NCBI GenBank assembly: GCA_946407485.1
Contig: CAMJOE010000001.1
Location: 1-63,557 of the forward strand
DNA length: 63,557 nt
Source: an uncultured Prevotellaceae bacterium
GTDB taxonomy: Bacteria > Bacteroidota > Bacteroidia > Bacteroidales > Bacteroidaceae
Direction of reading: 5' to 3'
The notes beneath the pieces are model-generated. The model was not told the DNA's origin and did no database searches. It worked only from the letters and a program-made list of their open reading frames with translations. Below are positions 3,071 to 58,620 of this stretch, piece by piece (within the stretch, counting starts at the first letter, position 1; every line of letters starts with the position of its first letter). The position numbers and the translations under genes are program-made.

Positions 3071-3086
3071 CGCAAAGGAGGGAAAA

Positions 3087-3316: not shown

Positions 3317-4615
3317 TTAGTTCACCTCTATCAGCACCTCGGAGAGGGTGGGATGAATGTGGACGGTCTCGCGGAGCTGGCGCAGCGTGGCGCCGAGGGT
3401 GATGTAGGCCGTCACCTCCTGTACGATGTCGGCGGCATGTGCGCCGAATACGTGGGCGCTGAGCAACTTGCCTTCTTCGGGCTCGCAACAGAGCTTGACC
3501 ATGCCTTCCGTCTCGTTCATCGCCAGCGCCTTGCCGTTGGCGCGGTAGAAGCTTTTGTGGCACTCGAAGGGCGTGCCTGCCTGCTTCAGCTGGTCCTCTG
3601 TGGGACCGGCGCAGGCGGCTTCGGGCTCGGTGAAGATGGCGGCGGGCATGAAGTCGAAGCGTATCTTGTCCTCGATGCCGAGGATGCGGTTCACGACGTG
3701 TATGCCCTGCATCTCCGCCGCATGCGCCAGCATCTGGCGTCCGTTGACGTCGCCGATGGCGTAGATGCCCTTCACCGTTGTCTCGAAGTTCTCGTCCACG
3801 ACGATGCCCTTGCGCTCATCGTAATCGAAGCCCGCATTGGAGAAGTCGGGCGAGACGTTCGGTTTGCGGCCCGTTGCCATCAGCACGTAATCGGCCTCCA
3901 CGCTCACCTCTTTGCCTTTCTGTTCGAACAGGACGGACAGTCCCTCTCCACCTTTCTCCTCCCCACTCTCCGCAGAGAGGGCGGGGGCGAGGCTCTTCAC
4001 GCCTGCTCCCATGTAGAAGGTGATGCCGCGCTTCTCCAGGAGCTTGCGCAGGCGCTTTGCGATGTCGCCATCCACCATGGGAAGGCACTCCTTGAGGTAC
4101 TCCACGACGGTCACCTCCGAGCCGAAACGTTGGAAGACGCTCGCAAACTCCATGCCGATGACGCCCGCACCTATGATGCAGAGCCGCCTGGGCAGTTTCT
4201 TCAGGCCGAGCAACTCGGTGGAGGACCCTACCTTTGGGCTGTCGGCACCCGGGATGGGCAAGAGCTTGGCGCTGCTGCCCGTAGCGACGATGATGTGCTC
4301 TGCCGTCACGCCGCTCACGGTATGTGCATCGATGAAGACGCCCTTCTCGCGAATCAGCGTGATATTGGGATGCGAGAGCAGCGTCTCGACGCCGCCGCGC
4401 AGCGCCTCCACGACTTGCGGCTGACGCTCCGTAGCTTCTGCAAACGTGGCTGAATGCACGTAGGTCTTCGTCGGGATGCAGCCAACGTTGAGGCACGTAC
4501 CGCCCACGTGGACGTCCTCGAAGATAGTGACCTTCAGACCCTTCTTCGCCGCATAGACCGCAGCTTTGTAGCCGCCAGGCCCTGCTCCTATAATGATTAA
4601 ATCTGCTTTGTTCAT
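3317..4615 (-). CDS. lpdA: dihydrolipoyl dehydrogenase (E3 / L-protein)
   Basis: IIGAGPGGY FAD motif, redox disulfide GGTCLNVGCIPTK, second GAGVIGMEF dinucleotide motif, C-terminal HIHPTLSE motif. Last gene of the gcv operon. Confidence 0.9.
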   Translation of the reverse strand: MNKADLIIIGAGPGGYKAAVYAAKKGLKVTIFEDVHVGGTCLNVGCIPTKTYVHSATFAEATERQPQVVEALRGGVETLLSHPNITLIREKGVFIDAHTVSGVTAEHIIVATGSSAKLLPIPGADSPKVGSSTELLGLKKLPRRLCIIGAGVIGMEFASVFQRFGSEVTVVEYLKECLPMVDGDIAKRLRKLLEKRGITFYMGAGVKSLAPALSAESGEEKGGEGLSVLFEQKGKEVSVEADYVLMATGRKPNVSPDFSNAGFDYDERKGIVVDENFETTVKGIYAIGDVNGRQMLAHAAEMQGIHVVNRILGIEDKIRFDFMPAAIFTEPEAACAGPTEDQLKQAGTPFECHKSFYRANGKALAMNETEGMVKLCCEPEEGKLLSAHVFGAHAADIVQEVTAYITLGATLRQLRETVHIHPTLSEVLIEVN

Positions 4616-8066: not shown

Positions 8067-8090
8067 AGTTAAATAATTAGAAAATGTGAT

Positions 8091-8566
8091 AATAAGAAAA
8101 TAAGAAAAGGAAGGAGTTATTCATTGTTTAGGTTTTCTCTTGCCTTCTTTATTATCTTGATTAATGTACCAATAATTATATTTAAATCGTTCTTAAGTGA
8201 GTCGTGCTCTTTTTGACTGATAGTTTCTGATAAGAATAACAGATCTAACCAGTAGTCTGTCTCGCCTGCTTCTTTTAGCGCAATGTTCAGTTTCGTGACG
8301 AAATCAGGTTTGGTCTGGGCATATTTGCTTTCGGCGATGTTGGCTCCAATGCTTGTACCTGACTTGTAAACCTGAGTGGAGATTACATACTCCTGTCGCT
8401 CTTCGCGAAGAAACTTGTGCAACTTGATGATGCGCAAAGCAAAGTTCTTGCTGAGTTCTGCAAGCAGGTTGTTCTTTATCATCTCAGGAAGCGTATAATT
8501 AGAAGATATGAAGTGTAAAAATAAGAGGAGAAGGAAGGCGGTAAACCTTTCTTATTTTCTTATTTT
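8091..8566. mobile_element. low-GC cassette carrying the four-helix-bundle gene, bounded by ~20-bp inverted repeats
   Basis: AATAAGAAAATAAGAAAAGG (8091-8110) versus the reverse complement of CCTTTCTTATTTTCTTATT (8546-8564): 19/20 match with one A indel. Confidence 0.5.
8117..8482 (-). CDS. four-helix-bundle protein (23S rRNA intervening-sequence protein / Avd-like family)
   Basis: 121-aa helical ORF. GTSIGANIAESKYAQTKPDFVTKLNIALKEAGETDYWLDLL resembles the TIGR02436 four-helix-bundle family. Strongly AT-rich compared with its neighbours. Confidence 0.75.
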   Translation of the reverse strand: MIKNNLLAELSKNFALRIIKLHKFLREERQEYVISTQVYKSGTSIGANIAESKYAQTKPDFVTKLNIALKEAGETDYWLDLLFLSETISQKEHDSLKNDLNIIIGTLIKIIKKARENLNNE

Positions 8567-8576
8567 CTACATTTCT

Positions 8577-9698
8577 TCATTTCTTATAATGTTTGTCGTA
8601 GAACTTTTTCTTTACTACTTTGCCTGGGAATGTCTTCTTGCGGATCTGGATGGAAAGCGGGGTGTCGAGCTTTGCGAACTCTGTCTTGACGAGGGCCATG
8701 CAGACGCTCTTGTCGACGCTGAGGCAGTGGTAGCCGGTGGTGACTTCGCCCACCTGCTCTCCCTCCATGTTGAGTACGGGATAGCCATGGCGGGGGATGG
8801 CCTTGTCAGCGAGTTCGATGCCTACGAGCTTCTGTGGGACGCCGTTGGCCTTCTGCTCTGCGAGGGCTTCCTTACCGATGAACTCGGGCTTGTCGAGCTT
8901 GCAGAACATCGAGAGTCCTGCCATGACGGGGGAGATGTCGGCGCTGAGCTCGTCGCCGTAGAGCGGCAGGCCGACCTCGAAGCGCAGCGTGTCGCGGCAT
9001 CCGAGACCGCAGGGCTTGCAGCGTCCGCTCTGGATGAGCTTGTCCCAAGACTGCTGGATGAACGCGTGGGAACCGTAAATCTCGAAGCCGTCCTCGCCGG
9101 TGTAGCCGGTGCGGGAAACTATTATCCCCGACGGAGAACCGTCGGGCACGGTGGCTGGGGAGGCGTCGGGGGCGGCGAGGGCTTTTGCCGTGTAGAACTT
9201 CAGCTCCTGACAGGGGATGCCGAGCACCTCTTCGACGACGGCTTCGGCTTCGGGGCCTTGGACTGCGAGCTGCCCATAAAAGTCGCTCTGGTGGTCGAGG
9301 CAGATGTCGAAGCCTGCTGTGTGCTCCTTCATCCAAGCCACATCCTTGTCGATGTTTGCCGCGTTGATGACGAGGAAGAAATCGTTCTCGCCCATCTTGT
9401 AGACGAGCAGGTCGTCGACCGTTCCGCCGTTGGGATAGAGCATCATACCATAGTATATTTGTCCGACGGGCGCACCGCTGACGTCGTTCGTGAAGATGTG
9501 CTGGACGTAGCGTTCAGCGTCGGGACCAGTGATGCGCACTTCGCCCATGTGACTCACGTCGAAGACGCCGCAATGCTGACGTACGGCATTGTGCTCGTCT
9601 GTGATGTTCGTGTACTGGATGGGCATGATGAATCCGCCGAAGGGCGACATGAGTGCGCCGAGTGCCACGTGGCGGTCATAGAGACATGTCTGTTTCAT
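8577..9698 (-). CDS. gcvT: aminomethyltransferase (glycine cleavage T protein)
   Basis: LYDRH..GA.M..FGG..MP.QY start and VSRTGYTGEDGFEI block are typical of GcvT. Confidence 0.9.
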   Translation of the reverse strand: MKQTCLYDRHVALGALMSPFGGFIMPIQYTNITDEHNAVRQHCGVFDVSHMGEVRITGPDAERYVQHIFTNDVSGAPVGQIYYGMMLYPNGGTVDDLLVYKMGENDFFLVINAANIDKDVAWMKEHTAGFDICLDHQSDFYGQLAVQGPEAEAVVEEVLGIPCQELKFYTAKALAAPDASPATVPDGSPSGIIVSRTGYTGEDGFEIYGSHAFIQQSWDKLIQSGRCKPCGLGCRDTLRFEVGLPLYGDELSADISPVMAGLSMFCKLDKPEFIGKEALAEQKANGVPQKLVGIELADKAIPRHGYPVLNMEGEQVGEVTTGYHCLSVDKSVCMALVKTEFAKLDTPLSIQIRKKTFPGKVVKKKFYDKHYKK

Positions 9699-9776: not shown

Positions 9777-10580
9777 TCAGAGAGCGGTCGGGGCTGAGGC
9801 GTCTCGCTTCCCCCAGATGAACCTTGGGTCGAGGTATTCCTGTTCTATTGCCTCGATGTTCCTGACGTCTTCCTCGGTGAGCCGAAGCGTGTCGGAGCAG
9901 AGCTTTTCCACGGCGAAGCGCTTGAACTCGTCGATAGTGAGGTCGGTGTGCTCCTTGAGGAGCGTGATGCGCTGACGCACGCTCTCGACGCCGTGCTTGT
10001 CGAGCTTCTGTCTGGGCGGCGTGATGGCCTGGAGCATGTGTCGCATGTCGGTGTCGAAGAGCATAGTACCGTGGACGATGCTCCACCCGGGGAGGTGGTA
10101 GTAGGCATTGCCCGAGACCTTCCGTCCGCCGATGAGCACGTCGTTGTTCTGCGTGGAGGTGGCATCGAGCCCCAGTTCGCGGAGCATTCCGCAGACCATT
10201 TGCATGTAGGCGCGGAAGGTGGTCTGCACCTGGTCGGAGCGCGTGATGTAGCTCATCATGACGTTTGAGCGGTCGGCATATACGCAGCCGCCGCCGCTCT
10301 TCCGACGATAGAACTCGATGCCGTGCTCGCGGCAGTAGTCGAGGTTCACCTCGTTCTCGATGACCTGGTTTCTGCCGAAGATGACGGTCGGCTCCACTTG
10401 CCAGAGGAAGAGAAGACCAGCCCCCTTCCCCGACCCCTCCCCCGAGGAGGAGGGGAGTTCCGTGCCAAAGAGCCTCCCTCCTCGGGGAGAGGTATGGAGG
10501 GGGGCTGCCGCATACTCCTCCATCGCCAGATAGAAGCTGAGGCGTCGCGTTTCGTCTGAGGGCAGAGCCAAGTATGTCAT
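9777..10580 (-). CDS. lplA: lipoate-protein ligase, catalytic domain only
   Basis: RRKSGGGCVYAD and GRKVSGNAY blocks correspond to the LplA/LipB-fold catalytic motifs. At 267 aa it lacks the LplA C-terminal domain. It carries a 90-bp in-frame repeat insertion. Confidence 0.85.
   Translation of the reverse strand: MTYLALPSDETRRLSFYLAMEEYAAAPLHTSPRGGRLFGTELPSSSGEGSGKGAGLLFLWQVEPTVIFGRNQVIENEVNLDYCREHGIEFYRRKSGGGCVYADRSNVMMSYITRSDQVQTTFRAYMQMVCGMLRELGLDATSTQNNDVLIGGRKVSGNAYYHLPGWSIVHGTMLFDTDMRHMLQAITPPRQKLDKHGVESVRQRITLLKEHTDLTIDEFKRFAVEKLCSDTLRLTEEDVRNIEAIEQEYLDPRFIWGKRDASAPTAL
10418..10507. repeat. G/C-rich double-hairpin palindromic element, in frame in lplA (90 bp)
   Basis: Ends CAGCCCCC / GGGGGCTG. 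Internal CCCCTCCCCCGAGGAGGAGGGG and CCTCCCTCCTCGGGGAGAGG hairpin halves. Confidence 0.75.
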
Positions 10581-10639: not shown

Positions 10640-10823
10640 CGAAAAAATTAAGAATTAAGAAAGAAGAATGGTGATTTATTTCGTTCTTTTAGAAAAAATA
10701 ACATAGTAGGCGGACGTCGGGCTGACACTCGGTCGCCCGGCATCACGGCAAAAGCGACTCAAGTCGTCGCCTTGGACGACTCGAATCGGTGCGTTTCGTC
10801 GGTCTATGCTACACGTGGGATGG

Positions 10824-10890
10824 ATTGCTGCATGGCGATGCAGCAATTGCTTCGTCGCCATGCAGCAATTGCTTTGTCGCCATGCAGCAA
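10824..10890. repeat. TTGCTGCATGGCGA-family 22-bp array
   Basis: GCCATGCAGCAATTGCTTYGTC units plus an inverted terminal copy. Partner array at 58798-58863. Confidence 0.75.
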
Positions 10891-10964
10891 ACAAATCGAT
10901 GAGTGGAAAAGGCTCGTAAGAGGTGTGGGGAAGAGCCTTGAAAGGTGCAGGGAAGGGCGTTCCC

Positions 10965-14987: not shown

Positions 14988-16697
14988 ATGAAGCTTCTCC
15001 TTTCGCTGCTCGGCACGTTGCCGCTCTCCGCTCTCGCCAAGACGTCTTTCCATAATATAATATATATAATGTGTGACGACATGGGCTACGGCGACTTGGG
15101 CTGCTACGGGCAGAGGCTCATCGCCACTCCCAACATCGACCGCATGGCGGCGGAAGGGATGAGGTTCACCGATGCCTATGCCGGCTGCCCTGTGAGCGCG
15201 CCCAGCCGATGCTCGTTCATGACGGGGCAGCACACGGGGCACGCGAAGATACGAGGCAACCGCGAGTACTGGGGACGCGCTGTGCTCAGGCAAAACATGT
15301 TCGGGGAGAATGCCGACTATTACGTCATCGGGCAGGAACCCTACGACATGACGCAGCCCATCATACCCGAACTCTTCAAGGCGAAAGGCTATCGCACGGG
15401 CATGTTCGGCAAGTGGGCTGGAGGCTACTGGAACTTCGACTACCCCGACACCTACGCCCGTCTGCCCGACGGCAACACGGACACAAGCCGGAGCCGAGAG
15501 AGCTCGTCGTGCTCCCTGCCCAATCTCAGAGGCATCGACTGCTTTTATGGTCCCGTCTGCCAATTCCAGGCGCACAGCTATTTCCCCAATTTCCTGAACC
15601 GATACGACCCGGAGGGACGCGGCGACACGCACCTCGTGGCAGAGGTCTTGAAGCAAAACATCAAGTGCAAGACCCTCTCTAACTCCCCCTTAAAGGGGGA
15701 GGACTGGGGAGGGGCTTCCTATGCAGACCGCCCTCAATACTCAGCCGACCTCATCCATCAATACGCCCTCGAGTGGCTCGACCGACAGACGAAGGACGAA
15801 CCTTTCCTCGGTATCTTCACCTACACCTTGCCGCATGCCGAGCTCTGGCAACCAAGCGACTCTATCGTCGAACGCTATCACGGCGTCTTTCCTGCCGAGG
15901 AGGAACGCTCCTATCGCACTGATGCAGGCAGCTGGTACTACGGCGGCAACGACAAGCACGCGCAGTTTGCGGCGATGATAACACGCCTCGATGCCTACGT
16001 CGGCGAGATACTCGCAAAGCTCCGCGACAAGGGGCTTGCCGACAACACACTCGTCATCTTCACCAGCGACAACGGTCCGCACGAGGAGGGTGGCGCCGAC
16101 CCGGGCTTCTTCGGACGCGACGGCAAGCTGCGCGGCATCAAGCGAAGCACCTACGAGGGCGGCATCCGCATCCCCTTCATCTGCTGGGGCGCAGGCATAC
16201 CACGTGGCACCGTCAGCAATCACCAACTTGCCTTCTACGACCTCATGCCGACCTTCATGGAGTACAGTGGCGTCTTCTCGAAGAAGGAAATACGGGAGCA
16301 CAGCCAGCAGACCCTCTCTGACTCCCCCTTAAAGGGGGAGAACCAAAGGTCAGCGACCGAAGGGAAAGCTAACTCCCTCCCTTTAAGGGAGGGCTGGGGA
16401 GGGTCTTTTGACGGCATCTCCTTCTGTCCCACCCTGCTCGGCAAGCCCCAAAAGCAACGCCGGCACGACTTCCTCTATTGGGAGATGAGCGACGGCCCGA
16501 CGCAGGTCATCGGCGTCCGGCAGGGCGACTGGAAGCTCGTCGTCAGCCAGGGAACGCCTTTCCTCTACAACCTCTCGACAGACATCCACGAGGACCACGA
16601 CCTCAAAGACCGCTTCCCAGACAAGCTCGCCGAGCTCATCGGCATTGTCCACCGCGAACACATCGACAGCCCGCTCTTCCCCATTAACCTTCCATAA
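14988..16697 (+). CDS. sulfatase (Ser-type formylglycine site)
   Basis: CDDMGYGDLGCYG metal-site block. Sulfatase signature PVSAPSRCSFMTG has Ser at the FGly position. Signal peptide present. Two in-frame palindromic insertions. Confidence 0.85.
   Translation: MKLLLSLLGTLPLSALAKTSFHNIIYIMCDDMGYGDLGCYGQRLIATPNIDRMAAEGMRFTDAYAGCPVSAPSRCSFMTGQHTGHAKIRGNREYWGRAVLRQNMFGENADYYVIGQEPYDMTQPIIPELFKAKGYRTGMFGKWAGGYWNFDYPDTYARLPDGNTDTSRSRESSSCSLPNLRGIDCFYGPVCQFQAHSYFPNFLNRYDPEGRGDTHLVAEVLKQNIKCKTLSNSPLKGEDWGGASYADRPQYSADLIHQYALEWLDRQTKDEPFLGIFTYTLPHAELWQPSDSIVERYHGVFPAEEERSYRTDAGSWYYGGNDKHAQFAAMITRLDAYVGEILAKLRDKGLADNTLVIFTSDNGPHEEGGADPGFFGRDGKLRGIKRSTYEGGIRIPFICWGAGIPRGTVSNHQLAFYDLMPTFMEYSGVFSKKEIREHSQQTLSDSPLKGENQRSATEGKANSLPLREGWGGSFDGISFCPTLLGKPQKQRRHDFLYWEMSDGPTQVIGVRQGDWKLVVSQGTPFLYNLSTDIHEDHDLKDRFPDKLAELIGIVHREHIDSPLFPINLP
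15670..15718. repeat. short derivative of the G/C palindromic element, in frame in the sulfatase gene
   Basis: AGACCCTCTCTAACTCCCCCTTAAAGGGGGAGGACTGGGGAGGGGCT matches the left and right ends of the 16309-16406 copy. Confidence 0.75.
16309..16406. repeat. full-length G/C palindromic element, in frame in the sulfatase gene
   Basis: Ends AGACCCTC / GAGGGTCT. Hairpins TCCCCC-TTAAA-GGGGGA and CTCCCTCCC-TTTAA-GGGAGGG. Confidence 0.8.
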
Positions 16698-16777: not shown

Positions 16778-19700
16778 CTATTCCTGGTCGGCCATGAGGT
16801 TGAGGACGTAGGTGTAATCGGCCACATCGACCTCGCCATCCTTATTGACGTCGCCCGAGACGGAGTAGCTATCGTCGGCCATAAGGTTGAGAATGTACGT
16901 TGCGTCGGCCACATCGACTGCACCGTCGCCGTTGGCATCGCCGGGCATTCCGAAGCCGCAGAGCAGGGCATAGTCGTCGCGCTCAACCTGCCACTGGAGC
17001 AGAGGCCAGCCGTTACCGATGACACCATTCTCGTGCCAACCTTGCCATTTGCTTGCGATATCGCATATCTCCTCCTGGTTCGTGCCGTCGTAGAAGAGAA
17101 CATCTATCAGCGAGGGATGAGGTCCGGTGATGGAGGTCGGCCAATCGGCAAGAACATCAGCCTGGCTACCATTGGCTTTGCCTGCGGAGTAGCTCCTTTG
17201 CATGGTGAAATCAGCATTGACATAACCTATCATGTCCATTCCTGAATTGCCAAGTACTGCAGCATTGGTGTAGCAGTTTTGGATGTCGGCATACGACATA
17301 ACCGAACCGATGAAACCTGCAGCAAAGCCCCATTCGGACTTAACCGTTCCGTTGACATATACACCATTGATTGTAGTGGTGGGGGCATCCTCTGCCTCAT
17401 ATCCTGCGCGACCTGCCAAGATGCCTACGCTCTGTGCATTGCCGCCATCGACGGTTGCATTGTAGAAGCCAAGGTTCTTGACTGTGCCCACAAGAGCGCC
17501 GAAGAAGCCTGCCTCAAACTCATTGTCCTTGTTGGCGGCAATGGTCAGGTTCTTGATGATGTGACCTGCGCCGTCGAGGTCGATGGCCTTGCCGTAGCCC
17601 TCTTCGTAGCTGTTAGCATAGAACGTGCTGTTCATGGGCCACCAGCCTTCGCCCTGCATGTCGATGTCGGCAGTCAGCTTGGCGTAAGTCGTCTTGCCGT
17701 CAGCCATGCGGTCGCGCAGGCTCTGCAGGTCAAACTTGTTGGCAATCTGGAAGGGATTGCTCTCGGTACCGTTGCCCTTCGTGTCGAGCAGCGTAGCCTT
17801 CATGCTGGCCTTGTCCATGTCGAACTCGATGAGATACTTGCCGGCAGGCGAGATGCGCCAAGTGCGGTCGAGGCCACGCACGAGGTCGGTCACCTCCTGT
17901 CCGCTCTGGAGCTCGAGGTATTGCTCTTCGCTGCCATAGCGCGCCTCGGTCCAACTGCCGCGAGTCGTCTGGCTATAGTTCACCATCTCCTCAGTGCTGC
18001 GACATGTCATGATGCCGAACGAGCAGAAGGGATTGCTGTTGTCGTTCACGAGGTCCACAACGCCGACGTACTTGCCGCTGCCAACATGCTGCAGGGGTAC
18101 TTGCTCGTCGTTCTTCCAACGCATCAGGCTGCCCTGGCGATTGTTAAGCGTACCCGTCACAAACACCGCGTTGTCCCAATTGTACTCGTCCTGTAGAGCG
18201 AAGTCAACAGTCATCTTGTCGAGGTCGAGCACAACGTTATAGGTACCGTTAAGCGCCTGGAAGTCGCTGCCACCCTCCTGCACGTCGAAGCGATGGCGTC
18301 CGGGCGTGATGAAGCTGCGCGTGCCGTCGGTGCTCTTGTAGATAGTGTTGATGCGACGGAAGTAGAGGCCTGCACGCTGGTAACCGCCGATGCGACGGCT
18401 GCGGTCCTGAAGAGTCACGGTACCTACGAACTGGCCCTGTGCGTTCATTTTCAACGGATAGAGCGGGCACATCTGAGCGTAAGGCCATTCGCTGTTCTCG
18501 CTGTTCTCGTCGTAAAGGTCGCCCTGAACATAGACTACGCCACCGATGGCAGGATTCGTCATCAGCTCGGCGATTTTCTGTTCGGCTTCTTCGTCGGTCA
18601 GTGTGCCATTGATGACGATTCCCTCGAGTTCGTTATAGACTTCTATCATCTGGTCTTGCTGATTGCCAGGTTCGAGGCCGTCGGCCATGTCCGAAGCAAA
18701 CAGCGCAATCTCGAACAAGCGCTTATAGACGTCCACGCTGGCAGGAACGGCTGCAAACTCGGCATTCATCTCCTCGATGAGCTTCAGCTGCTGCTCTGTG
18801 TCGGCAGTCCTGGCTTGAGCTATCTTGCTGCGGATGGCATCGATATGCGACTGGCTGAGATAGTATTCCTGATCGTAGCGCTGCTGGTCGATAAGCTCTA
18901 CGCGCTCGCTATACTGGTCGAGGATGGCATTGATGGCATTGCTGCTCTCGCCCAAGTAAGTGAGGCGGAAGTTGCCCCAGATGGTCAGGTTCTTGTTGCG
19001 CCAAGGGGTCTCGCCGTTGCGGATGCCGATAGTGAGCTTGCCACCCTTCACGATGCCGTAGGCCGTCTGTTCGTAGCGCTTACCGTTGAACGCGAAGCTG
19101 GCCGTGTATATGTTGTCGGGCACGAAGTATCCGTCACCCTCCTCTGTGTCGATGTCCACGCTGCCTGTCTGCTCACCGTTGTGCGGAGCGGTCTCGTCAT
19201 CAGTGGCATCGTAGCGGCAGTTGACGCCGTTCTCTGCATCTGCATAGCTGACCTTGTCGGCATAGACACTCAGCACGGGCGTCTGGAAGTCGTTAACGAA
19301 GAGCTGAGCGGGGATGACGTCCGTGCCGTCGATAAGGCCTTCGTGACCTTGCCCCGGACGATGGAAAGCCTGAGCGGTGAGGGCGTAGATGCCGTCACTG
19401 AGACCTGTTATCTCCTGGCTGACCTCGAACGCCATATTATAGGCGGCAGCCACGGGGAAGACGTCAGTGAAGCCTCCGTTGTGCACCATGTTGTAGCCGC
19501 TCTCAGTGCGACCCTCGGTGACGGTCCAGCCATTCCAAGCCACAGCATTGTCGAACTTGGGATTGACGATAAGAGAGGTCAAGTCGGAGCCCTCGGCAGC
19601 GCTGTTCAGGATTGCCGTCTGGAGAAGCTGCTGCGCAAAGGTAGTCTCAGCTGCGAGTTGCTCAGCATCGAGCAGACGCGTATTCATTATATATAAATAT

Positions 19701-22700
19701 GTACCGTTGGGGAAGTCGGCGGATGGCGCAACTTCTTCTGTCAGGTAAGTCTCGAGTTTGTCGGCGTCATCGCCTTGGAGGTCGTCGCGGCTCTCCCATT
19801 CGCTGATGATGGCTCCTACGGCAGCAGCATAGCTCTCGTAAGCAGCCACGCTGAGCTTGATTTGGTCGGGCAGACGGCTTGCCTGGTCGGCAGCGTCGAG
19901 GATGGCACTGGTCTCGGTGAGGCTCTCGGCGCCTTCCACGATGTTGCTGTAAGCCTCCTTGAGCGACTCCTGTCCCATGACTTCTTCGAGGTCTTGGGCA
20001 TCGTCGGCAATCTGCTGAGCGATGAGGGCGTAGGCTGCGGCATCGTTGCCGACGTACTCAATGCGGACGCGGTCGATGACGCTCCAGGCGTTGGCGGTAT
20101 TGATCTGATTGCTCAGGCCAATACGTAGCGTGCCATCGGTAACGGCAAGGTAGAGCGGCTTGTTCCAGTAGTGGCCCTTCGCCATATAGACAGCGGCAGC
20201 GGCGGTGTTCGAGGGAACGAACTGGCCGTTTGACAACTGCACTTCGCCCGCGCCGTCGTTCATCTTGGCATCCTTGCCGTCGGCGGTGATGTCAACAAGG
20301 CGGCGAGCCTGACGCTTGCCGGCACTCTCGGCATAGTAGTAGGTGTTGCGCATCATGTCCTCCACAAAGTTGTCGTACGCCTCGCTGTCAAGAGCGGCAG
20401 CACGGCTGAAGCCCTGCAGGCGCAGCTTATAGACGCCGTTCTCGAGGTCGACGATATCCTGATGCGTGTCGAACGTCTTGCCTGCCTGCTCGGCTACACC
20501 ATTGCTGACAGCGAACTCATTACCCGTCCAGAAATTGCTGTCGTTGGTAAAGTTGGCGTTTTTGATGATGGCAAGGAAGCCCGTGTAGTTGGGGTCCTCC
20601 TGTCCGCAGACGGAGCAGAAGCCGTCTTCAAACTTATGAGCGGGGATGACGACTTCGTCGTTGTTGGAATACGTCATGCCGGACGGATCCACTGTGCCGT
20701 CGCAGAGCATCTTTCCCTTTGGGAAGACCTGTGCGTGACCATTGGAGAAAGGCAGAGGCTGGTCGTCGACCGCAGCGCCGTTGTCGAGGTTCTGGTACCA
20801 TGCAATAGTGCTCTGGTCGCCGTTCAGCTTATAGCAGAGCGAGCCGTCCATAATCTCGTCGTAGCTGATAAGAGCCACCTGCTGCTCTACCTCGCTTGTG
20901 CAGTAGTTGTTTGAGAGGTGGCCGTCGGTGACGCGTGCAAAGTAGAGGCCCTTGCCCTCACTGTAGCCCGTCACCTCGCTGCAGCTCCAGCAGTTGTTGA
21001 TGGTAGCCTTGCCGCCGCTTCCGCCCCATCCGACGAGGGCTCCTGAATCGTTGCCGCCTTCGATGGCACCGGTGCTGAAGCAGTTCTCGATGAGGAGGGT
21101 CGTCTGGCTGCCCGTGTTGCCGCCGAAGATGCCTGCTGCCTGTACGCCGGTGGCATAGACATTGCCCATGTTGCCAAGGTTGCGGAGCGTGACGTTGCCT
21201 GCCATCTGGTTGGTGCCGCCCACGAGGGCTACGCATTCGCCATAAGCATTGATGGAGCAGGTCTCATCAAGCAAGAGGTTCTCGATGAGCGCGCCGTTGC
21301 CGCAGCGGCCGATGAAGCCGACGTAGTTAGCATCGGCATTGATGTGCAGCTCGCTGATACGGTGCTGTTGTCCGTCGAAGTGGCCGCGATAGGGGTTCGT
21401 GCCGTTGCCGATTGGTTCGAACAGATCGCTGTAGTCCATCATGTTGATGTCGTCGGTGAGACGTGCGTTCCAACCTGAGTTGCCGAACTCGTTGACCATG
21501 CGAGAGAACCAGTAGAGCTGGCTTGCATTGCTTATCATGCGGAAATCGTCAACAAGGGGAGCATAGTCGGGGTTGCCGCTGCCGCAATTGATGCAGAAGC
21601 CGTCCTCGTATTCGTGAGGCGGAATGGTGCCGCTCGGCGAGTTGCTGTAGCCATTGACATCAATAGGCGTGCCGTCGCAGTTGAGCTGACCGCCGGCATA
21701 AACCTGGCCGCCATCTATATAATAAGGTACAGGATAAGCGTCCGTGCCGAGACGTTGGCTCCATGTGAGCGTGCTTTGGTCGCCGTTGAGCGTAAAGCAG
21801 AGCTCGCCGCTCGAAAGCGGTTCGTCGGTCAGCCAGTCGCCATCGGTGCCCTGATGTCCTGCGCCCTGGTCGTCGAAGTCGGTAAAGTCGAAGCAGTTGG
21901 TCACCGCCATCGTGCCCGGTTCGTAGCGAATGAGCTGGCAATAGTAATCAAATTTGTTGCCAGCCATGTCAGCACCCGTGATGGTTCCCAAGTTGACGCA
22001 ATTCGTAATGGAGCTGCCACCTTTGTTGATCCATGCACAAAAAGCAGTGGCAGGCGCACCAGTAATCGCGCCTGTGTTGAGGCAGTTCTTCAGTTGGATA
22101 GTGGGATAGCCGCTCTGGCCTACGCCGAGGATGCCAGATGCCGAACCGCTGGTGGCCGTGATGGTTGCCTCGTTCACGCAGTTCTCTATGATGAGAGGCG
22201 TTTCGGTATCAACTTGCGCTGCGCCTGTGATGCCGCCGATGCCGGAGGGGCCTGTCACGGAGCAACTGCTGTCGATGATAAGGTTGCGAATGACGGTGCC
22301 GCCGCGAATGACGCCGAAAAAGCCTTGGAAGTTGCTCGTGCCGTCAATGACCATGCCTTTGATGCGGTGGCCCTGTCCGTCGAACGTGCCGTTGTACTTG
22401 TAGGTTGTGTTGAGGCCGATGGGCGTGTGTGCATTTACTGTGCCCTGATAGTCGATGTCGGCAGTCAGCATACCTTTGATGGTAACCTGATGAGCGTCAT
22501 TGACCATCGCAGCGAACCACTCGACGTCGGCCACGCTGCCCAGTTCGAGGAAGCCGTCGGCGTTTGGCGTGATGTGGTCTTGCATGAGCGTTCCGCAGAC
22601 GGAGCACCAGCCATCGACGTCGTTGTGCTTAGGAGCCGGCGAGCTGTTTGTGTTGCTGTAGGTGACGTCACCTATGGCAACGCCAGCGCAATTCACTTCG

Positions 22701-23581
22701 CCCACGGCATAGACCTGTTTGTGCGTGTCGAAGGGCACGGGGAAAGCGTCGGTGCCTAATGTCTGATACCAGTTGATGCTGGTCTGGTCGCCGTTTGCCT
22801 TGAAGCAGAGCTCGCCGCTTGCCACCATGTCGTAGGTGACGTAGGTGCAGCCGCCGGGCGCTGTCGCTGCATCCGCATCCTGCTGCAAGCAGTAGCAATT
22901 GGTGAAGGAAGCACGGTCGGCCGGGTTGCCCCAAGCAAACGTGTTCATGGTCTCAACCTCTGCAATGGAGATGCAGTTGGTGTAGGAGATGGACTTGCCG
23001 CCCGTCACCCATCCCACGAAACCGTGATTGTAGCCCTGATTGCCCTGCACCTTGATGGCAGAGATACAGTTGCGGAAGGTGGCGTTGCGCGAAGCGTAGC
23101 CGATAAAGCCCGCGTTGGAGGCATTGGCGTCATAGTCCACGTCGATGTTGACAATGCTTACCACGTTCTCGAACGTCGCGTTGTCGCTCCAGTTCCAAGC
23201 GGCAAGTGCGGCGCAGTTCTTGAATGAGGCGCGGATGCTGCCGCCCACGACGAGGTTCTTCACAGTGCCGGCGAAGTTGTAGAACATGCCGGTCTGCTTG
23301 CCCTGGAAGTCGTAGTTGAGGGTGACGGTATGCCCTGCGCCGTCGAAGGTGCCGCTATAGGAAGCGGCGTTCGTGCAGAGCATGAAGTCGAGCCCTTCGA
23401 TGTCGCCGGTGAGTACCACGTCAGAGCTCTCGTAGCCCGACATTTCGGACCAGGCTTGCAAATCGCTTTTGCTGCCGATGAGATACGCACCGCTCTCGTT
23501 CTGCTGCAGGTCGGCCCATGCAGTTTGCCCGGCAAGCATCATGATGCCTGACAGGAGGAGGAAGTAAAGTTTACGTTTCAT
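16778..23581 (-). CDS. giant (2267 aa) secreted GLUG-repeat/adhesin-like protein with C-terminal dockerin, no T9SS CTD
   Basis: Signal peptide ..GQTAWA/D. GLUG-type modules (GTFDGAGHTV, GFFGVIRGGTVIRNL, IGGITG), three CxxC linkers (DGWCSVCG, DGFCINCG, DGFCSVCG) and two CBM-like modules. The terminal sequence GDANGDGAVDVADATYILN..GDVNKDGEVDVADYTYVLN gives two Ca-loop dockerin repeats (about 16781-16945). Confidence 0.7.
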   Translation of the reverse strand: MKRKLYFLLLSGIMMLAGQTAWADLQQNESGAYLIGSKSDLQAWSEMSGYESSDVVLTGDIEGLDFMLCTNAASYSGTFDGAGHTVTLNYDFQGKQTGMFYNFAGTVKNLVVGGSIRASFKNCAALAAWNWSDNATFENVVSIVNIDVDYDANASNAGFIGYASRNATFRNCISAIKVQGNQGYNHGFVGWVTGGKSISYTNCISIAEVETMNTFAWGNPADRASFTNCYCLQQDADAATAPGGCTYVTYDMVASGELCFKANGDQTSINWYQTLGTDAFPVPFDTHKQVYAVGEVNCAGVAIGDVTYSNTNSSPAPKHNDVDGWCSVCGTLMQDHITPNADGFLELGSVADVEWFAAMVNDAHQVTIKGMLTADIDYQGTVNAHTPIGLNTTYKYNGTFDGQGHRIKGMVIDGTSNFQGFFGVIRGGTVIRNLIIDSSCSVTGPSGIGGITGAAQVDTETPLIIENCVNEATITATSGSASGILGVGQSGYPTIQLKNCLNTGAITGAPATAFCAWINKGGSSITNCVNLGTITGADMAGNKFDYYCQLIRYEPGTMAVTNCFDFTDFDDQGAGHQGTDGDWLTDEPLSSGELCFTLNGDQSTLTWSQRLGTDAYPVPYYIDGGQVYAGGQLNCDGTPIDVNGYSNSPSGTIPPHEYEDGFCINCGSGNPDYAPLVDDFRMISNASQLYWFSRMVNEFGNSGWNARLTDDINMMDYSDLFEPIGNGTNPYRGHFDGQQHRISELHINADANYVGFIGRCGNGALIENLLLDETCSINAYGECVALVGGTNQMAGNVTLRNLGNMGNVYATGVQAAGIFGGNTGSQTTLLIENCFSTGAIEGGNDSGALVGWGGSGGKATINNCWSCSEVTGYSEGKGLYFARVTDGHLSNNYCTSEVEQQVALISYDEIMDGSLCYKLNGDQSTIAWYQNLDNGAAVDDQPLPFSNGHAQVFPKGKMLCDGTVDPSGMTYSNNDEVVIPAHKFEDGFCSVCGQEDPNYTGFLAIIKNANFTNDSNFWTGNEFAVSNGVAEQAGKTFDTHQDIVDLENGVYKLRLQGFSRAAALDSEAYDNFVEDMMRNTYYYAESAGKRQARRLVDITADGKDAKMNDGAGEVQLSNGQFVPSNTAAAAVYMAKGHYWNKPLYLAVTDGTLRIGLSNQINTANAWSVIDRVRIEYVGNDAAAYALIAQQIADDAQDLEEVMGQESLKEAYSNIVEGAESLTETSAILDAADQASRLPDQIKLSVAAYESYAAAVGAIISEWESRDDLQGDDADKLETYLTEEVAPSADFPNGTYLYIMNTRLLDAEQLAAETTFAQQLLQTAILNSAAEGSDLTSLIVNPKFDNAVAWNGWTVTEGRTESGYNMVHNGGFTDVFPVAAAYNMAFEVSQEITGLSDGIYALTAQAFHRPGQGHEGLIDGTDVIPAQLFVNDFQTPVLSVYADKVSYADAENGVNCRYDATDDETAPHNGEQTGSVDIDTEEGDGYFVPDNIYTASFAFNGKRYEQTAYGIVKGGKLTIGIRNGETPWRNKNLTIWGNFRLTYLGESSNAINAILDQYSERVELIDQQRYDQEYYLSQSHIDAIRSKIAQARTADTEQQLKLIEEMNAEFAAVPASVDVYKRLFEIALFASDMADGLEPGNQQDQMIEVYNELEGIVINGTLTDEEAEQKIAELMTNPAIGGVVYVQGDLYDENSENSEWPYAQMCPLYPLKMNAQGQFVGTVTLQDRSRRIGGYQRAGLYFRRINTIYKSTDGTRSFITPGRHRFDVQEGGSDFQALNGTYNVVLDLDKMTVDFALQDEYNWDNAVFVTGTLNNRQGSLMRWKNDEQVPLQHVGSGKYVGVVDLVNDNSNPFCSFGIMTCRSTEEMVNYSQTTRGSWTEARYGSEEQYLELQSGQEVTDLVRGLDRTWRISPAGKYLIEFDMDKASMKATLLDTKGNGTESNPFQIANKFDLQSLRDRMADGKTTYAKLTADIDMQGEGWWPMNSTFYANSYEEGYGKAIDLDGAGHIIKNLTIAANKDNEFEAGFFGALVGTVKNLGFYNATVDGGNAQSVGILAGRAGYEAEDAPTTTINGVYVNGTVKSEWGFAAGFIGSVMSYADIQNCYTNAAVLGNSGMDMIGYVNADFTMQRSYSAGKANGSQADVLADWPTSITGPHPSLIDVLFYDGTNQEEICDIASKWQGWHENGVIGNGWPLLQWQVERDDYALLCGFGMPGDANGDGAVDVADATYILNLMADDSYSVSGDVNKDGEVDVADYTYVLNLMADQE

Positions 23582-26700: not shown

Positions 26701-27708
26701 CTGCGGGTTGGTGGCAAAGGTGAAGTTGTTGCTGTTGTTGCCGCTCTTGAAGCGCGGCCACTCCCAGAGGTTGTCGCGCAGCATGCTGTCGCCGCTGCTC
26801 ATGACGATAGCCCAGGCCTTTGCCAACCGCTTGTTCTCCTCCATCGACCAGAAGGCGCGCGAACTGCCGTGCTTAGCCGGCCAGAGGCAGTTGGCGCGGA
26901 GGCGGAGCAGGAGTTCCATCACCTTCTCGTAGGTGTTAGGTCCTATATTATTATATGTAGCGTCGATGGTCCGCTTGGCCCATGGGAGGAGCGCCCAGTC
27001 TTCGTCGTTGATGAAGAGTCCGCGGTATCGGACGGAGGGTTTCTCCACGTCGGTGCGGTCGCCCTGAACATAGATGCAGGCCATCGGGGCGGGTTCGACG
27101 TCGGCCCACCAGACGTAGGGCGAGACGCCGATTCTGCGGCTGATCTCGAAGAGGCCGTAAGCCGTGCCGCGCGGCGTGCCGCCCAGGACGACGAGGGCTT
27201 GGCCGACGCCCTCCATCGGCTCCTGTACGAGCTGGAGCGCATACGCTTCCCAGACGCCCGTGAGACCAGTGGTATCGACCTTCCCGTCGGCAATGAGCGC
27301 GTCGATGAGGGCGGAGGAACCGATGGTGCCGGCGAGAATGACAGCCTCCTCCATCCCCTCCAAAGGAGGGGTGAACTGCGGGCCATTATCCCCTCCACCT
27401 TCTCGCAGCGGTTCCCCCCTCCTTTGGAGGGGAAGGGGGAGGCTGTAGGGGAGGTTCGGGGAGAAGGTAAGGTTTCTTAGCGTAAGGCTTGTCCCCGTGA
27501 CCGCCTTGATGTCCCGGATGACGCAGCGAGCGGCGGTGGTGACCACCTCGGCATCATTCGCATCCACGACGAACACGGCGTTTGCGTCGGTCCCGACGAT
27601 GGGAAAACCGCTTGCCACCTGCGAGAAGGTCAGGTCCGCCGCGGCTGGCAAGGTGCCGGCAAGCGACAGGATGCAAATCGTCAAATATCGTGACAAATGA
27701 TGCTTCAT
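23716..27708 (-). CDS. GH115-like alpha-glucuronidase with two CBM-like modules and T9SS CTD
   Basis: GTPRGTAYGLFEISRRIGVSPYVWWADV and YRGLFINDEDWALLPWA blocks recalled as GH115 signatures. Duplicated ~190-aa C-terminal modules. C-terminal KGIYIRNGRKVVVK. Confidence 0.7.
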   Translation of the reverse strand: MKHHLSRYLTICILSLAGTLPAAADLTFSQVASGFPIVGTDANAVFVVDANDAEVVTTAARCVIRDIKAVTGTSLTLRNLTFSPNLPYSLPLPLQRRGEPLREGGGDNGPQFTPPLEGMEEAVILAGTIGSSALIDALIADGKVDTTGLTGVWEAYALQLVQEPMEGVGQALVVLGGTPRGTAYGLFEISRRIGVSPYVWWADVEPAPMACIYVQGDRTDVEKPSVRYRGLFINDEDWALLPWAKRTIDATYNNIGPNTYEKVMELLLRLRANCLWPAKHGSSRAFWSMEENKRLAKAWAIVMSSGDSMLRDNLWEWPRFKSGNNSNNFTFATNPQGCYDYWAKRAGEARDYEGIYDIGMRGLQDVALLGYDGQAAQLKGLADIIAAQREIITDSLGGDPTKVPQIYIPYKEALTLYNAGLQIPDDVTMCWVDDNYAYIRQLPTAKERKRSGGHGIYYHLSYLGNPCSYIWLSTISPSLISYELSKAYENGMTRFWMINVGDIKPAEAEFEFCMELAWDVSKWTPERAHEFSRWWSAKTFGEEFADEMGEMRLEHYRLASASKPECVYHVSLTIPEMQQRIKDYQTLAARVRSLQESIPQRLQDAYFELFAYPILAAAGQNLKAYGAKLSYWYAGLGDHARAMHYAALARSGYSDVVYLTDIFNNQTAGGKWNGMMNKSPNASATGPQFGMPYAATASEVNDAKGEVFDEGYVYVPGTSYTGSRGTWQTLENLGVGGQSITVWPIDYTTYTATNARSKAPYVEYSLPLEKGKYQIIVRCLPTFPITTAHDLCVGMGIGAGSVTSQSIKCNAETNVWSDNVMHGYAEARFSYTATSAKDVAFRFYALNPALVISQIVYRRTDAEDLTLTNQLLVNPDFELYKSGGSVRTNPTGGIQRGVPYGWTLEGTMSGNSYGISNSDGSINYCEGGSICWFKAKPMPENFRLYQTIPADKLQPGVYEVGCWLFNQSGKRGPCRLFANDHVQYYAHKSDYDQILKADEVSSFAGHKAGYETHTIMHPMRVVLQVHEGEDLTVGIKTSCISNDGRQTDETGWFKVDHFTVRRIGDLPQGDPDSLTRALIVNSDFEYKTETELANGATVKGVPYGWNVSYTGTYTMTNSGLYGRGEGMHGQNYCAFTPAGYRPMPNDFCLYQTIPAAKLQAGVYRISCLFWSETGLEGMGRLFANNAVQYYGSSHAYEQNLTPGETNSFASYISEAVDGKSMQELSVKVTVAEGEDLTLGIRSGSIKGDGTQVTGQNRTGKFRVDYFRIERLMDANPDGIALVHEDDRFYRHYPARGTTYNLSGQAVKAGRPNGQLPKGIYIRNGRKVVVK
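27343..27444. repeat. full-length G/C palindromic element, in frame in the GH115-like gene (102 bp)
   Basis: Ends AGCCTCC / GGAGGCT. Hairpins CCCCTCC-AAA-GGAGGGG and CCCCTCC-TTT-GGAGGGG. Confidence 0.8.
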
Positions 27709-29310: not shown

Positions 29311-29315
29311 TTTCA

Positions 29316-32236: not shown

Positions 32237-32345
32237 TCACGTCACCCCTCATACATCTTCACGTCACCCCTCATACCTCTTCACGTCACCCCTCATACCT
32301 CTTCACGTCATCCCTCATACATCTTCACGTCACCCCTCCTTTGGA
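32237..32345. repeat. 22-bp tandem repeat, about 4.7 copies (TCACGTCACCCCTCATACMTCT)
   Basis: Unit starts at 32237, 32259, 32281, 32303 and 32325. Confidence 0.9.
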
Positions 32346-32368
32346 AAGGCAGGGGGAGGCTCTTTTTT
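32333..32368 (+). terminator. hairpin + T-run after the TlpA-like gene (also a partial copy of the G/C palindromic element)
   Basis: CCCCTCC-N13-GGGGAGG, then CTCTTTTTT. Confidence 0.5.
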
Positions 32369-32376
32369 ACATCACA

Positions 32377-44408: not shown

Positions 44409-44480
44409 CACCGACCAAGTGGCTCTTTTATGGGCTTGAGGGTCAAATCTTAATGGATTCCTGCGGAAAAGCACACTCTG

Positions 44481-44513
44481 CTCCCTCCCTCATGGGAGGA
44501 TTGGGGTGGGTCT
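44481..44513. repeat. partial (right-half) copy of the G/C palindromic element, non-coding
   Basis: CTCCCTCCCTCATGGGAGGATTGGGGTGGGTCT versus CTCCCTCCCTTTAAGGGAGGGCTGGGGAGGGTCT at 16373-16406. Confidence 0.65.
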
Positions 44514-57490: not shown

Positions 57491-57525
57491 AAATCATTTA
57501 CCATTTACCATTTTATTTTCTCCCC

Positions 57526-58620
57526 TTAGAGGGGGAGGAAGGCGGGGTCTTTCATTTTCTTCATGTGGCAGAGTAACAATTTGCCGTCGTTGTCGCGCAG
57601 ATGCATGCCGCCGCCTTCGCAGTAGCGCCAGTAGCGGCAGCCTTTGCAGTCGCCGGTCTTCATCCATTGGCGGTCGCGATGCGGCTGGAAGCGTTGCTCC
57701 CAGACCTGCATGAAGTCGTCCTCGTAGATGTTTCCCTGACGGTAATTCGACCTGATGCTCGTGCAGGCGCTGATGCCTCCATCGACGAGGACTGACGCCA
57801 CCGTGACCCCTGCCACGCAGCGAAACATCCAGTCCCTCACGTCGCCCTCGTACGGCCCAAGGAATCCTTCGCAGCCGTACGACGCATGAATCCGGCCCTC
57901 CTGACGTGTCTCGCGGATGAAGTCGAGCAGTCCGCGGAGCTGTTCCCCCGTGAGCTGCAGCTCCTTGTCCTGCGCCGCGCGGCCCACCGGGAAGATGGTG
58001 GCGAGCCGCCAGTCCGCGACGCCTTTGTCGATGAGAAACGTCTTGAGCTCGGGCAGCATGTCATAGTTGTGCTGATGCACGCAGGTCATCACGTCATAGA
58101 CGAGCGTCGGGTCGCGCACTATCATGTCGATGGCCTGGCTTGCCATGCGGAAGCAGTCGGGGTTGCGACGCAGCCAGGTGTGCTGCTCTTCCAGTCCGTC
58201 GAGGCTGATTGTCACGGAGCAGAGGCCCGCGTCCTTCAGGTCGTCGAGCATCTGGGGCGTGAGCAGCAGGCCGTTCGTCACCATTCCCCAGGGGAAGCCA
58301 CGCGTCGAGATGCCTCGCGCGCACTCCACGACGTCCTCCCTCACCAGCGGCTCTCCGCCTCCGAGAATGATGAAGACGTCCCTCGGATTGCGTTTCCTGG
58401 CTATCCCGTCCAGCACGCGGAAGAAGTCCTCGCGCGGCATGTCGGGCACCATGGCAGCCTGTCGGCAGTCGCTCCCGCAGTGGCGGCAATGGATGTTGCA
58501 GCGCACGGTGCTCTCCCAGAAGAGTTGCCTGAGCGGATGCTCCTCGCGGAGGCTCTTCGTCAGGAGCCTCGAAGCCTCGAGCGCAACGGTACGCCTTATA
58601 CCTAACTTCTCGTCGTTCAT
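57526..58620 (-). CDS. radical SAM / SPASM-domain protein
   Basis: CNIHCRHCGSDC (CxxxCxxC), GGGEPL, and a C-terminal Cys-rich region CTSIR..CKGCRYWRYCEGGG. Start set at ATG 58620 because a TAtcTTTG box (58625-58632) lies inside the longer track ORF. Confidence 0.8.
   Translation of the reverse strand: MNDEKLGIRRTVALEASRLLTKSLREEHPLRQLFWESTVRCNIHCRHCGSDCRQAAMVPDMPREDFFRVLDGIARKRNPRDVFIILGGGEPLVREDVVECARGISTRGFPWGMVTNGLLLTPQMLDDLKDAGLCSVTISLDGLEEQHTWLRRNPDCFRMASQAIDMIVRDPTLVYDVMTCVHQHNYDMLPELKTFLIDKGVADWRLATIFPVGRAAQDKELQLTGEQLRGLLDFIRETRQEGRIHASYGCEGFLGPYEGDVRDWMFRCVAGVTVASVLVDGGISACTSIRSNYRQGNIYEDDFMQVWEQRFQPHRDRQWMKTGDCKGCRYWRYCEGGGMHLRDNDGKLLLCHMKKMKDPAFLPL

Follow-up and report, generated by a model that had tools for sequence, protein, structure and literature searches.

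Double-hairpin palindromic repeats lying in frame within protein-coding genes of rumen and gut Bacteroidales

A stretch of 63,557 nt from an uncultured Prevotellaceae bacterium (GCA_946407485.1, contig CAMJOE010000001.1, positions 1-63,557), hereafter called the window, contains short G/C-rich palindromic elements with two hairpins. Four main copies lie in frame in protein-coding genes: two in an S1-family sulfatase gene, one in the lipoate-protein ligase gene lplA, and one in the gene of a GH115 glycoside hydrolase. Elements of the same design are dispersed over many related genomes. They are likely to be a selfish, non-autonomous family of palindromic repeats, similar in behavior to the Rickettsia palindromic elements (RPEs) and divided into several subfamilies, which is multiplying in the genomes of rumen and gut Bacteroidales. 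As judged from sequence comparison, the elements are insertions and not ancestral loops.

Architecture and dispersal of the elements

The element at 16309-16406 in the sulfatase gene is composed of the left terminus AGACCCTCTCTGAC, the hairpin TCCCCC-TTAAA-GGGGGA, a 32-nt linker, the hairpin CTCCCTCCC-TTTAA-GGGAGGG, and the right terminus CTGGGGAGGGTCT: two C-run/loop/G-run hairpins are enclosed by 14-nt inverted termini within 98 bp. The initial annotation of this DNA, made from its letters, had quoted this sequence and described its left half as approximately the reverse complement of its right half. The quotation is exact to the letter, and the arms (16309-16341 and 16374-16406) are 76% complementary. 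As single-stranded DNA, the element is predicted to form a double hairpin closed by the paired termini, with a minimum free energy of -26.1 kcal/mol (z -2.8). It encodes TLSDSPLKGENQRSATEGKANSLPLREGWGGS, residues 442-473 of the sulfatase. The three other copies reported in that annotation, at 15670-15718, 10418-10507, and 27343-27444, are present as described and in frame, and they fold significantly better than shuffles, with z values of -2.9, -2.7, and -7.1, respectively. The first encodes TLSNSPLKGEDWGGAS, sulfatase residues 229-244, and the GH115 element has 39-nt arms that are 90% complementary.

In one module of an element, a 14-nt terminus with the sequence AGACCCTCYCYRRC, or a related one, precedes a C-run/loop/G-run hairpin of 6-8 bp, and a full copy consists of two inverted modules around a variable linker, which gives a family size of about 49-110 bp. 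A degenerate 31-nt pattern, GACCCTCYCYNNCYCYCCCTTAAAGGGRGRG, derived from the module common to both sulfatase copies, has three matches in the window as compared with 0.00 expected by chance. A strict scan for C-run/loop/G-run hairpins gave eight in the window, as compared with 0.6 for mononucleotide-shuffled sequence. With a covariance model built on the TTAAA-loop module, five modules were detected in the window (E values from 3e-12 to 5e-3), and the sulfatase copies, including both modules of the element at 16309-16406, had E values of about 1e-12. The lplA and GH115 copies scored weakly with this model (E 1.4-5.8). At least three sequence subfamilies are therefore present in the window, and a single covariance model for all four copies was rejected, the lplA and GH115 copies belonging to other subfamilies. 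Thus the copies, which had been presented as being of one architecture, do share the double-hairpin design, but they are at least three related subfamilies and not one sequence family.

In the hairpin stems, 98.5% of the cells are paired, with almost no G-U pairs. Two-sided changes were found in four of seven stem pairs (59 cells), a level of covariation reached by none of 500 shuffles. The near-absence of G-U pairs points to a palindrome at the DNA level rather than an RNA structure.

Further copies, on which the initial proposal of a repeat family depended, were found in a species-representative genome collection, where the 31-nt pattern matched more than 112 stretches. Among the matches listed, the module-bearing records came from about 28 metagenome-assembled genomes (MAGs). 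The sources of these are sheep, goat, yak, buffalo, roe deer, reindeer, cattle, horse, and the human gut, and the labels they bear are Bacteroidaceae, Prevotellaceae, Prevotella, Alloprevotella, Paludibacteraceae, and Bacteroides. Loci around module matches (about 0.83 Mb, or 834 kb, in total) were fetched and labelled L001 and so on. The copies align in register: the terminus AGACCCTCTCTAAC, a hairpin, a linker (2 to about 45 nt, in some cases longer), a second hairpin, and the inverted terminus. The commonest form is 68 nt long. One end is nearly always an "A" module (TCTCTAAC-TCCCCC), and the opposite end is one of several variants. The AAAGG-loop subfamily, to which the GH115 copy belongs, is also present at the unrelated loci L042, L097, L107, L109, L117, and L119; in L109, a TTAAA module is joined to an AAAGG module in a chimeric element. 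A census independent of the pattern, restricted to strict C-run hairpins more than 150 nt away from any seed-pattern match, gave 95 hairpins in 834 kb, or 0.114 per kb, and the value for the window is 0.126 per kb. By extrapolation, a density of about 0.12 per kb would amount to a few hundred hairpins per genome.

Carriage by phages was considered and rejected: among 2.9 million viral contigs, the module pattern occurs in one only. This contig (IMGVR_UViG_3300045988_146400, 72 kb) has two copies (L120 and L121) and could be a prophage or a phage of a host carrying the family. Rfam at gathering thresholds gave no match at the elements; its matches in the window are two tRNAs and Acido-Lenti-1, all elsewhere. 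A 46-aa query of tandem element peptides had no scored match in protein databases, and a 34-aa segment from the window had three matches only (E up to 0.001) among 1.84 billion representatives. Searching protein databases with an element peptide is uninformative, a query of this length being without statistical power.

Table 1. Elements, partial copies, and host genes in the window
Feature	Coordinates	Strand	Remarks
Full two-module TTAAA-loop element	16309..16406	+	In sulfatase; fold, module pattern, covariance model
Single-hairpin derivative	15670..15718	+	49 nt; left module joined straight to right terminus; in sulfatase
Two-hairpin CCGAGG-loop subfamily element	10413..10507	-	In lplA; encodes APLHTSPRGGRLFGTELPSSSGEGSGKGAGL, residues 26-56
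Two-hairpin AAAGG-loop subfamily element	27340..27447	-	In GH115; encodes YSLPLPLQRRGEPLREGGGDNGPQFTPPLEGMEEAV, residues 88-123
Degenerate single-hairpin insert	3938..3991	-	In lpdA; encodes LAPALSAESGEEKGGEGL, residues 209-226
Possible eroded insert, unverified	9126..9179	-	In gcvT; encodes LAAPDASPATVPDGSPSG; fold z -2.3
Half-module at radical-SAM/SPASM gene end	57516..57552	-	Covariance model E 0.005
Half-module (terminus + hairpin), probably non-coding	44479..44513	-	Covariance model E 3e-5
Half-module-like hairpin + G-rich terminus + T-run, intergenic	32333..32370	+	Directly after five 22-nt tandem repeats
Host gene 1, S1-family sulfatase, 569 aa, two elements	14988..16697	+	Sulfatase PF00884
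Host gene 2, lipoate-protein ligase LplA, 267 aa	9777..10580	-	LplA-B_cat PF21948
Host gene 3, GH115 glycoside hydrolase, 1330 aa	23716..27708	-	GH115 PF15979

The window also contains partial copies, two of which had been regarded as non-coding at the outset. The copy at 32333-32370 is indeed intergenic. The copy at 44479-44513 is probably non-coding, because the open reading frame (ORF) across it has no Pfam match and looks spurious. A third half-module, at 57516-57552, has remodelled the C-terminus of a radical-SAM/SPASM protein (ORF 57526-58689, minus strand): it encodes the last eight residues, KDPAFLPL, and the TAA stop codon of the gene sits in its hairpin loop. Solo half-modules with short tandem arrays directly after them (AAGGTCNAAGG... 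or GACCTGCGACC..., for example) were seen repeatedly, at 32215-32370 and 57440-57552 in the window and in L019, L030, L051, L057, L081, L092, L095, L096, L099, and L108. A larger element that contains an array may therefore exist, with the in-frame elements as its minimal two-end form.

Insertion into genes and turnover at occupied sites

Most copies are in coding sequence: 58 of the 73 full elements and 80 of the 133 module matches lie well inside ORFs. Pfam matches of the 56 distinct host ORFs fall into 114 families, and the hosts that could be named include UvrA, UvrD, alanyl-tRNA synthetase (AlaRS), a class I aminoacyl-tRNA synthetase, MetH, and a PPDK-like enzyme. Preservation of the frame, first claimed for the window, was borne out in this larger sample, in which the copies are overwhelmingly in frame in many unrelated proteins. 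The unseeded hairpins inside ORFs (72 of 95) equal the proportion for random positions (76%). Copies outside ORFs occupy short spacers between distinct operon genes and not split genes; the flanking pairs are MraY/MurD, fucosidase/uridine kinase, SufD/SufS, and esterase/DHFR. The presence of gene-disrupting or ribosome-bypassed copies among the "intergenic" and "edge" elements was considered and rejected, the flanking same-strand ORFs being distinct genes. No disruptive copy was seen among those of these elements that were examined.

The sequence of the elements appears to be suited to this location. In the canonical 68-nt element, the TAA in CTCTAAC and the TAA in the TTAAA loop close two frames, and therefore one frame is open in each orientation. 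The peptide of this frame is TLSNSPLKGE...LPLREGWGGS or, in the opposite orientation, DPPQPSLKGRESSPFKGELERV. In the AAAGG-loop subfamily, there is no stop codon in any frame read. The open frames encode flexible peptides rich in P, G, S, L, K, and E. Coding sequence probably tolerates the elements because they encode flexible loops and have an open frame; C and G runs cannot form stop codons. The base at position -1 of the element is A in 41 and T in 2 of the 73 copies; this is the only upstream position with a skewed composition. T is rare here because it would make a TAG codon in the open frame.

Comparison with orthologues indicates that the elements were inserted. Close orthologues of the sulfatase (76-88% identity) are 472 to 605 aa long, and in the alignment the differences in length are confined to exactly the two element sites. 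At these sites, many orthologues have a short loop, and others have quite different peptides of different lengths. Outgroups with about 60% identity have the short loop, both sites being without an insert. Neither insert is present in 7AN1, the nearest solved structure; its alignment with the sulfatase is in three blocks, with breaks at the two inserts. The L001 orthologue of LplA has 8 residues where that of the window has 31. Members of the 90%-identity cluster of GH115 are 1330, 1322, 1306, 1291, or 1287 aa long: the 1291-aa forms are without the 37-residue insert, and one form has half of it. Orthologues of LpdA of 416 aa (about 90% identity) are without the insert LAPALSAESGEEKGGEGL, and others carry a clear element peptide, PTPNPSLKGGEQSKSFPLGEDLGEA, at this position. 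The insertion of the elements is concluded from the fact that close orthologues or conspecific strains have none of the element, half of it, or a member of another subfamily at the same site.

The initial annotation had treated the segments as insertions, had suspected further ones in lpdA and gcvT, and had expected them to lie in surface loops. Insertion is supported by the orthologues, but the inserts are not clean additions: at the filled sites, the local loop sequence was replaced rather than cleanly interrupted. The lpdA insert is supported by the 416-aa orthologues. The gcvT insert is only suggestive; the segment has 10 extra residues relative to PDB 1YX2. The location in loops or linkers, which was examined in two or three proteins, seems to agree with the expectation. 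In the AlphaFold2 model of the sulfatase, residues 232-241 and 442-473 are predicted as coil with a pLDDT below 50, at the inserts where the alignment with 7AN1 breaks, and the AlaRS copy sits in an unaligned stretch between the aminoacylation and editing domains.

Two further observations concern these host families. The AlaRS host in L077 has, at ORF residues of about 387-404, a second small excess over Escherichia coli AlaRS: EKDPSKGELEGV stands opposite a loop shorter by 5 residues and looks like what is left of an element peptide after collapse. Several orthologues of LpdA (P0203 and P0264) and of the sulfatase (P0008, P0012, P0019, P0028, and P0046) have N-terminal extensions, such as MSTISQNQSTPLPAREGQGGGS or ...KLPLKGVG..., which look element-encoded. 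Elements may also create or extend N-termini and signal-peptide regions.

Turnover at the sites was seen even between conspecific strains: sulfatase site 1, GH115, and lplA all vary among them. The window and the conspecific locus L119 are 96.5-98% identical over 21.7 kb. Their structural differences are sulfatase site 1 and an unrelated 513-nt cassette only; in addition, the lplA elements differ in sequence. At sulfatase site 1, L119 has an unrelated 42-nt loop of the ancestral type between flanks of about 97% identity, and L003 has the full 68-nt form where the window has the 49-nt copy. In L119 lplA, an AAAGG-loop element occupies the site of the CCGAGG-loop element of the window, and the two genes are of equal total length. 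Occupation of one site by two subfamilies was observed in three cases: lplA (window and L119), sulfatase site 2 (window and L117), and a UvrD-like host (L056 and L004). At another orthologous site, L038 and L103 have the full element, L033 has a one-hairpin form, and L006 has none. At sulfatase site 2 of L003, three right modules stand in tandem. Divergence between conspecific strains remains at background right to the edges of the elements: the turnover is confined to the element itself.

The 513-nt segment, at 8068-8580 between gcvH and gcvT, is absent from L119 and looks like a small strain-variable cassette. Its ORF (8117-8482, minus strand) encodes a 121-aa protein of the 23S rRNA-intervening-sequence type (PF05635, E 5e-24), and it is flanked by tandem arrays of AATAAGA-type heptamers.

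Mode of spread and alternative explanations

The proposed selfish repeat family might persist as follows. Copies landing in frame in surface loops or inter-domain linkers would be tolerated and translated, and disruptive copies would be purged by selection. This might be the reason why coding and non-coding DNA are equally populated. The spread would occur via the hairpin, as single-stranded or cruciform DNA, and not via a cut-and-paste DDE transposase. A site once occupied could then serve as a landing pad, where the resident copy would be collapsed, duplicated, or overwritten by other members of the family. These changes might come about by recombination or gene conversion involving the similar termini and hairpins, or by break repair at the palindrome.

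Several features of the sites bear on this scheme. No target-site duplication of 2 nt or more was found in 73 copies, and the frequency of direct repeats of 2-8 nt is that expected by chance. Nor do these copies have a conserved upstream target in the form of a fixed tetra- or pentanucleotide. Within 40 nt outside the ends, an extra terminal 8-mer is present in 10 of 62 elements, as compared with a background of 0.6%. [quoted passage not shown] In the window, no transposase gene is present; one Xer-type tyrosine recombinase is all that it encodes in this respect. In 40 of the 45 classifiable in-ORF copies, the A module is sense to the host gene, and it is antisense in 5 (p 8e-8).

A stronger form of this scheme, which we regard as tentative, is a mobile system of the "copy-and-replace" kind that depends on the hairpin and resides mainly in those parts of genes that code for loops. 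New copies would home to occupied sites, or to the break-prone palindrome there, and then overwrite, collapse, or duplicate the resident copy; a dedicated enzyme and a strand or transcription bias (the 40:5 ratio) would be involved. In this case, specific loops of hundreds of proteins, including essential enzymes, would be hypervariable cassettes within species of free-living bacteria abundant in the gut.

Several points weigh against the reading of the elements as a selfish, tolerated family. The orientation bias goes beyond what neutral tolerance alone would give, although the count of 40:5 includes some orthologous sites more than once. A clean pair of empty and filled sites was sought in orthologue DNA, in the conspecific 21.7-kb locus, and by an all-against-all BLAST for empty sites, and none was found; as the loop was replaced or too diverged in every comparison, there is no direct observation of transposition de novo. 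Neither an autonomous partner nor a candidate transposase was identified. All of the sequences are from MAGs or metagenome contigs. The ORFs in the related loci were called by a greedy longest-ORF rule, which is a heuristic and not a gene finder, and it is from intact frames alone that translation of the inserts is suggested. The count of module matches in the genome collection (more than 112 stretches) is a lower bound, so that copy numbers per genome are extrapolated. It should also be mentioned that the AlphaFold2 model of the sulfatase is of moderate quality, with a mean pLDDT of 70.8 and further low-confidence segments elsewhere.

Among the alternatives, one that we consider possible but would not favor is that the elements are similar to repetitive extragenic palindromes (REPs) and their REPIN doublets, or derived from IS200/IS605 in the manner of palindrome-associated transposable elements (PATEs), and that they are mobilized as single-stranded hairpins by an HUH Y1 transposase (RAYT/TnpA) encoded elsewhere in the genome. 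The short G/C-rich hairpins arranged as inverted doublets of REPIN architecture, their subterminal position with no target-site duplication, the stem kept by compensatory changes on both strands, and the tandem or abutting copies all fit this model. However, the GTAG/CGTC tag of the REPs is absent: the modules start with AGAC or GGAC, and the complement ends with GTCT or GTCC. Moreover, the location is intragenic and not extragenic, the conserved 4-5 nt upstream target of PATEs is missing, and the search for a Y1 transposase or RAYT, which was confined to the window, found none.

It is unlikely that the elements are ordinary MITEs, that is, internally deleted derivatives of insertion sequences moved in trans by a DDE transposase acting on the 14-nt terminal inverted repeats. 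The clear inverted termini, the variable internal segment, the small size, and the absence of a transposase gene are as expected of MITEs, and some copies with linkers of 110-170 nt recall a deletion series. A longer element with the same ends was not seen in the 0.83 Mb of loci, in a search that was not systematic. Bacterial MITEs are about 90% intergenic (PMC11602168), whereas 76-79% of the present copies are intragenic. Together with the lack of a duplication in the 73 copies, the conservation of the hairpin by covariation, beyond that of the terminus, speaks against this explanation.

The inserts could instead be selected, as mRNA hairpins tuning translation or co-translational folding, as sites for DNA-binding proteins, or as useful flexible loops recruited repeatedly. 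The orientation bias would be accounted for in this way, and copies do persist across species: elements at orthologous sites are 92-99% identical, and the flanks there are 82-88% identical. We nevertheless hold selection to be quite improbable. Polymorphism of the sites extends to conspecific strains, in which subfamilies have been lost or exchanged, the host proteins are unrelated in function, copies are also located in intergenic spacers, and the avoidance of G-U pairs in the stems indicates a DNA palindrome and not an RNA structure.

Finally, ancestral low-complexity loops or artefacts of metagenome assembly, which the origin of all data from MAGs and contigs and the low complexity of the peptides might suggest, are effectively refuted by near-identical stretches of 31-68 nt at more than 100 unrelated loci in the assemblies of many independent projects, by outgroups and solved structures without the residues, and by frames that are kept and stems that covary.

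If the selfish-repeat explanation holds, one repeat family would be the source of a sizeable part of the variation in length and loops among Prevotella-type orthologues, including variation at the strain level. This would matter for protein clustering, structure prediction, and strain typing in metagenomes. The family would also offer a tractable system for the movement of palindromic repeats without target duplications and would show, as a natural map, which loops of hundreds of enzymes tolerate insertions.

Comparison with known systems

A full-text literature search found no description of such elements in Bacteroidota, which agrees with the statement made at the outset; the coverage of the literature was incomplete, and this is absence of evidence. 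The phenomenon itself is known. What is novel here is the sequence, the architecture, the phylum, the lifestyle of the hosts, and the same-site replacement, which is not reported for RPEs.

The GC clusters of yeast var1 and the double-hairpin elements (DHEs) of Allomyces (Paquin et al. 2000) are reportedly G+C-rich double-hairpin mobile elements of mitochondria. They resemble the Bacteroidales elements in being able to sit in coding regions without destroying these and in recurring at hot spots, and differ from the Bacteroidales elements in being located in AT-rich organellar genomes and in sharing no sequence.

MITEs such as Correia/NEMIS, ERIC, RUP, and BOX are likewise small non-autonomous repeats with terminal inverted repeats. 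They make target duplications and are about 90% intergenic, whereas neither applies to the Bacteroidales elements. The BrickBuilt MITE of Porphyromonas gingivalis is composed of end modules and short tandem repeats and is always intergenic (PMC4596501). It belongs to the same order, and half-modules of the present family also abut tandem arrays.

The intergenic regions of the window are packed with arrays of 7-, 9-, and 22-nt tandem repeats, often as inverted pairs, which recall BrickBuilt. They are located at 691-985, 57291-57491, 3075-3165, 10803-10916, 32215-32346, 39278-39368, 54674-54831, 58798-58889, 29262-29321, 50698-50807, and 55743-55882. Similar arrays recur far apart: 904-985 and 57300-57381, for example, are 88% complementary. 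The Acido-Lenti-1 match (39606-39651, plus strand; 40 bits against a gathering threshold of 37) is intergenic, beside a 22-nt array and inside an inverted repeat (39436-39486/39606-39656), and is possibly a chance match to a hairpin. Besides these repeats, the window has two giant ORFs with weak matches to dockerin type I, unusual for Bacteroidales: 16778-23581 (minus strand, 2267 aa) and 44984-49489 (plus strand, 1501 aa). The 2267-aa ORF has internal repeats of about 1 kb at 20774, 21737, and 22745.

The REP, BIME (bacterial interspersed mosaic element), and REPIN sequences share more features with the Bacteroidales elements: they are short G/C-rich imperfect palindromes (20-40 nt), form inverted doublets that give a larger hairpin, make no target duplication, and reach high copy numbers. 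Two REP superfamilies are defined by a 5' GTAG or CGTC tag, and REPs are extragenic (PMC3733652). In contrast, the Bacteroidales elements are mostly intragenic and tag-less; REPs have RAYT transposases.

The analogy with RPEs drawn in the initial annotation holds for the phenomenon and not as sequence homology. RPEs (Ogata et al. 2000, 2002) and the protein-coding palindromic repeats of Wolbachia (Ogata et al. 2005) are likewise dispersed palindromes of several subfamilies. They too lie in frame in many unrelated genes, including housekeeping genes, at apparently surface-compatible positions, and no transposase is known for either. A 2024 review of MITEs describes RPEs as the extreme and outstanding case of in-frame MITE insertion (PMC10969869). 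The differences are as follows. RPEs are roughly 150 bp long (PMC10969869), as compared with about 49-110 bp here. There is no sign of sequence relatedness, although a direct comparison with RPE sequences was not made. The present elements are G/C-run double hairpins with explicit 14-nt inverted termini, and among them one subfamily was observed in place of another at the same site. About half of RPEs are in ORFs, whereas the coding fraction here equals that of random positions. The hosts of the present family are free-living, abundant gut anaerobes, whereas those of RPEs are obligate intracellular bacteria.

In-frame selfish DNA in Rickettsia and Wolbachia is often ascribed to weak selection in small intracellular populations. 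So far it has been treated as a curiosity of these genera; the same phenomenon appears here, at a density that is similar or greater, in free-living bacteria that form large populations, inside UvrA, UvrD, AlaRS, MetH, and many carbohydrate-active enzymes. If the selfish-repeat explanation is correct, tolerance of translated repeats would be a property of the design of the element and not of relaxed selection.

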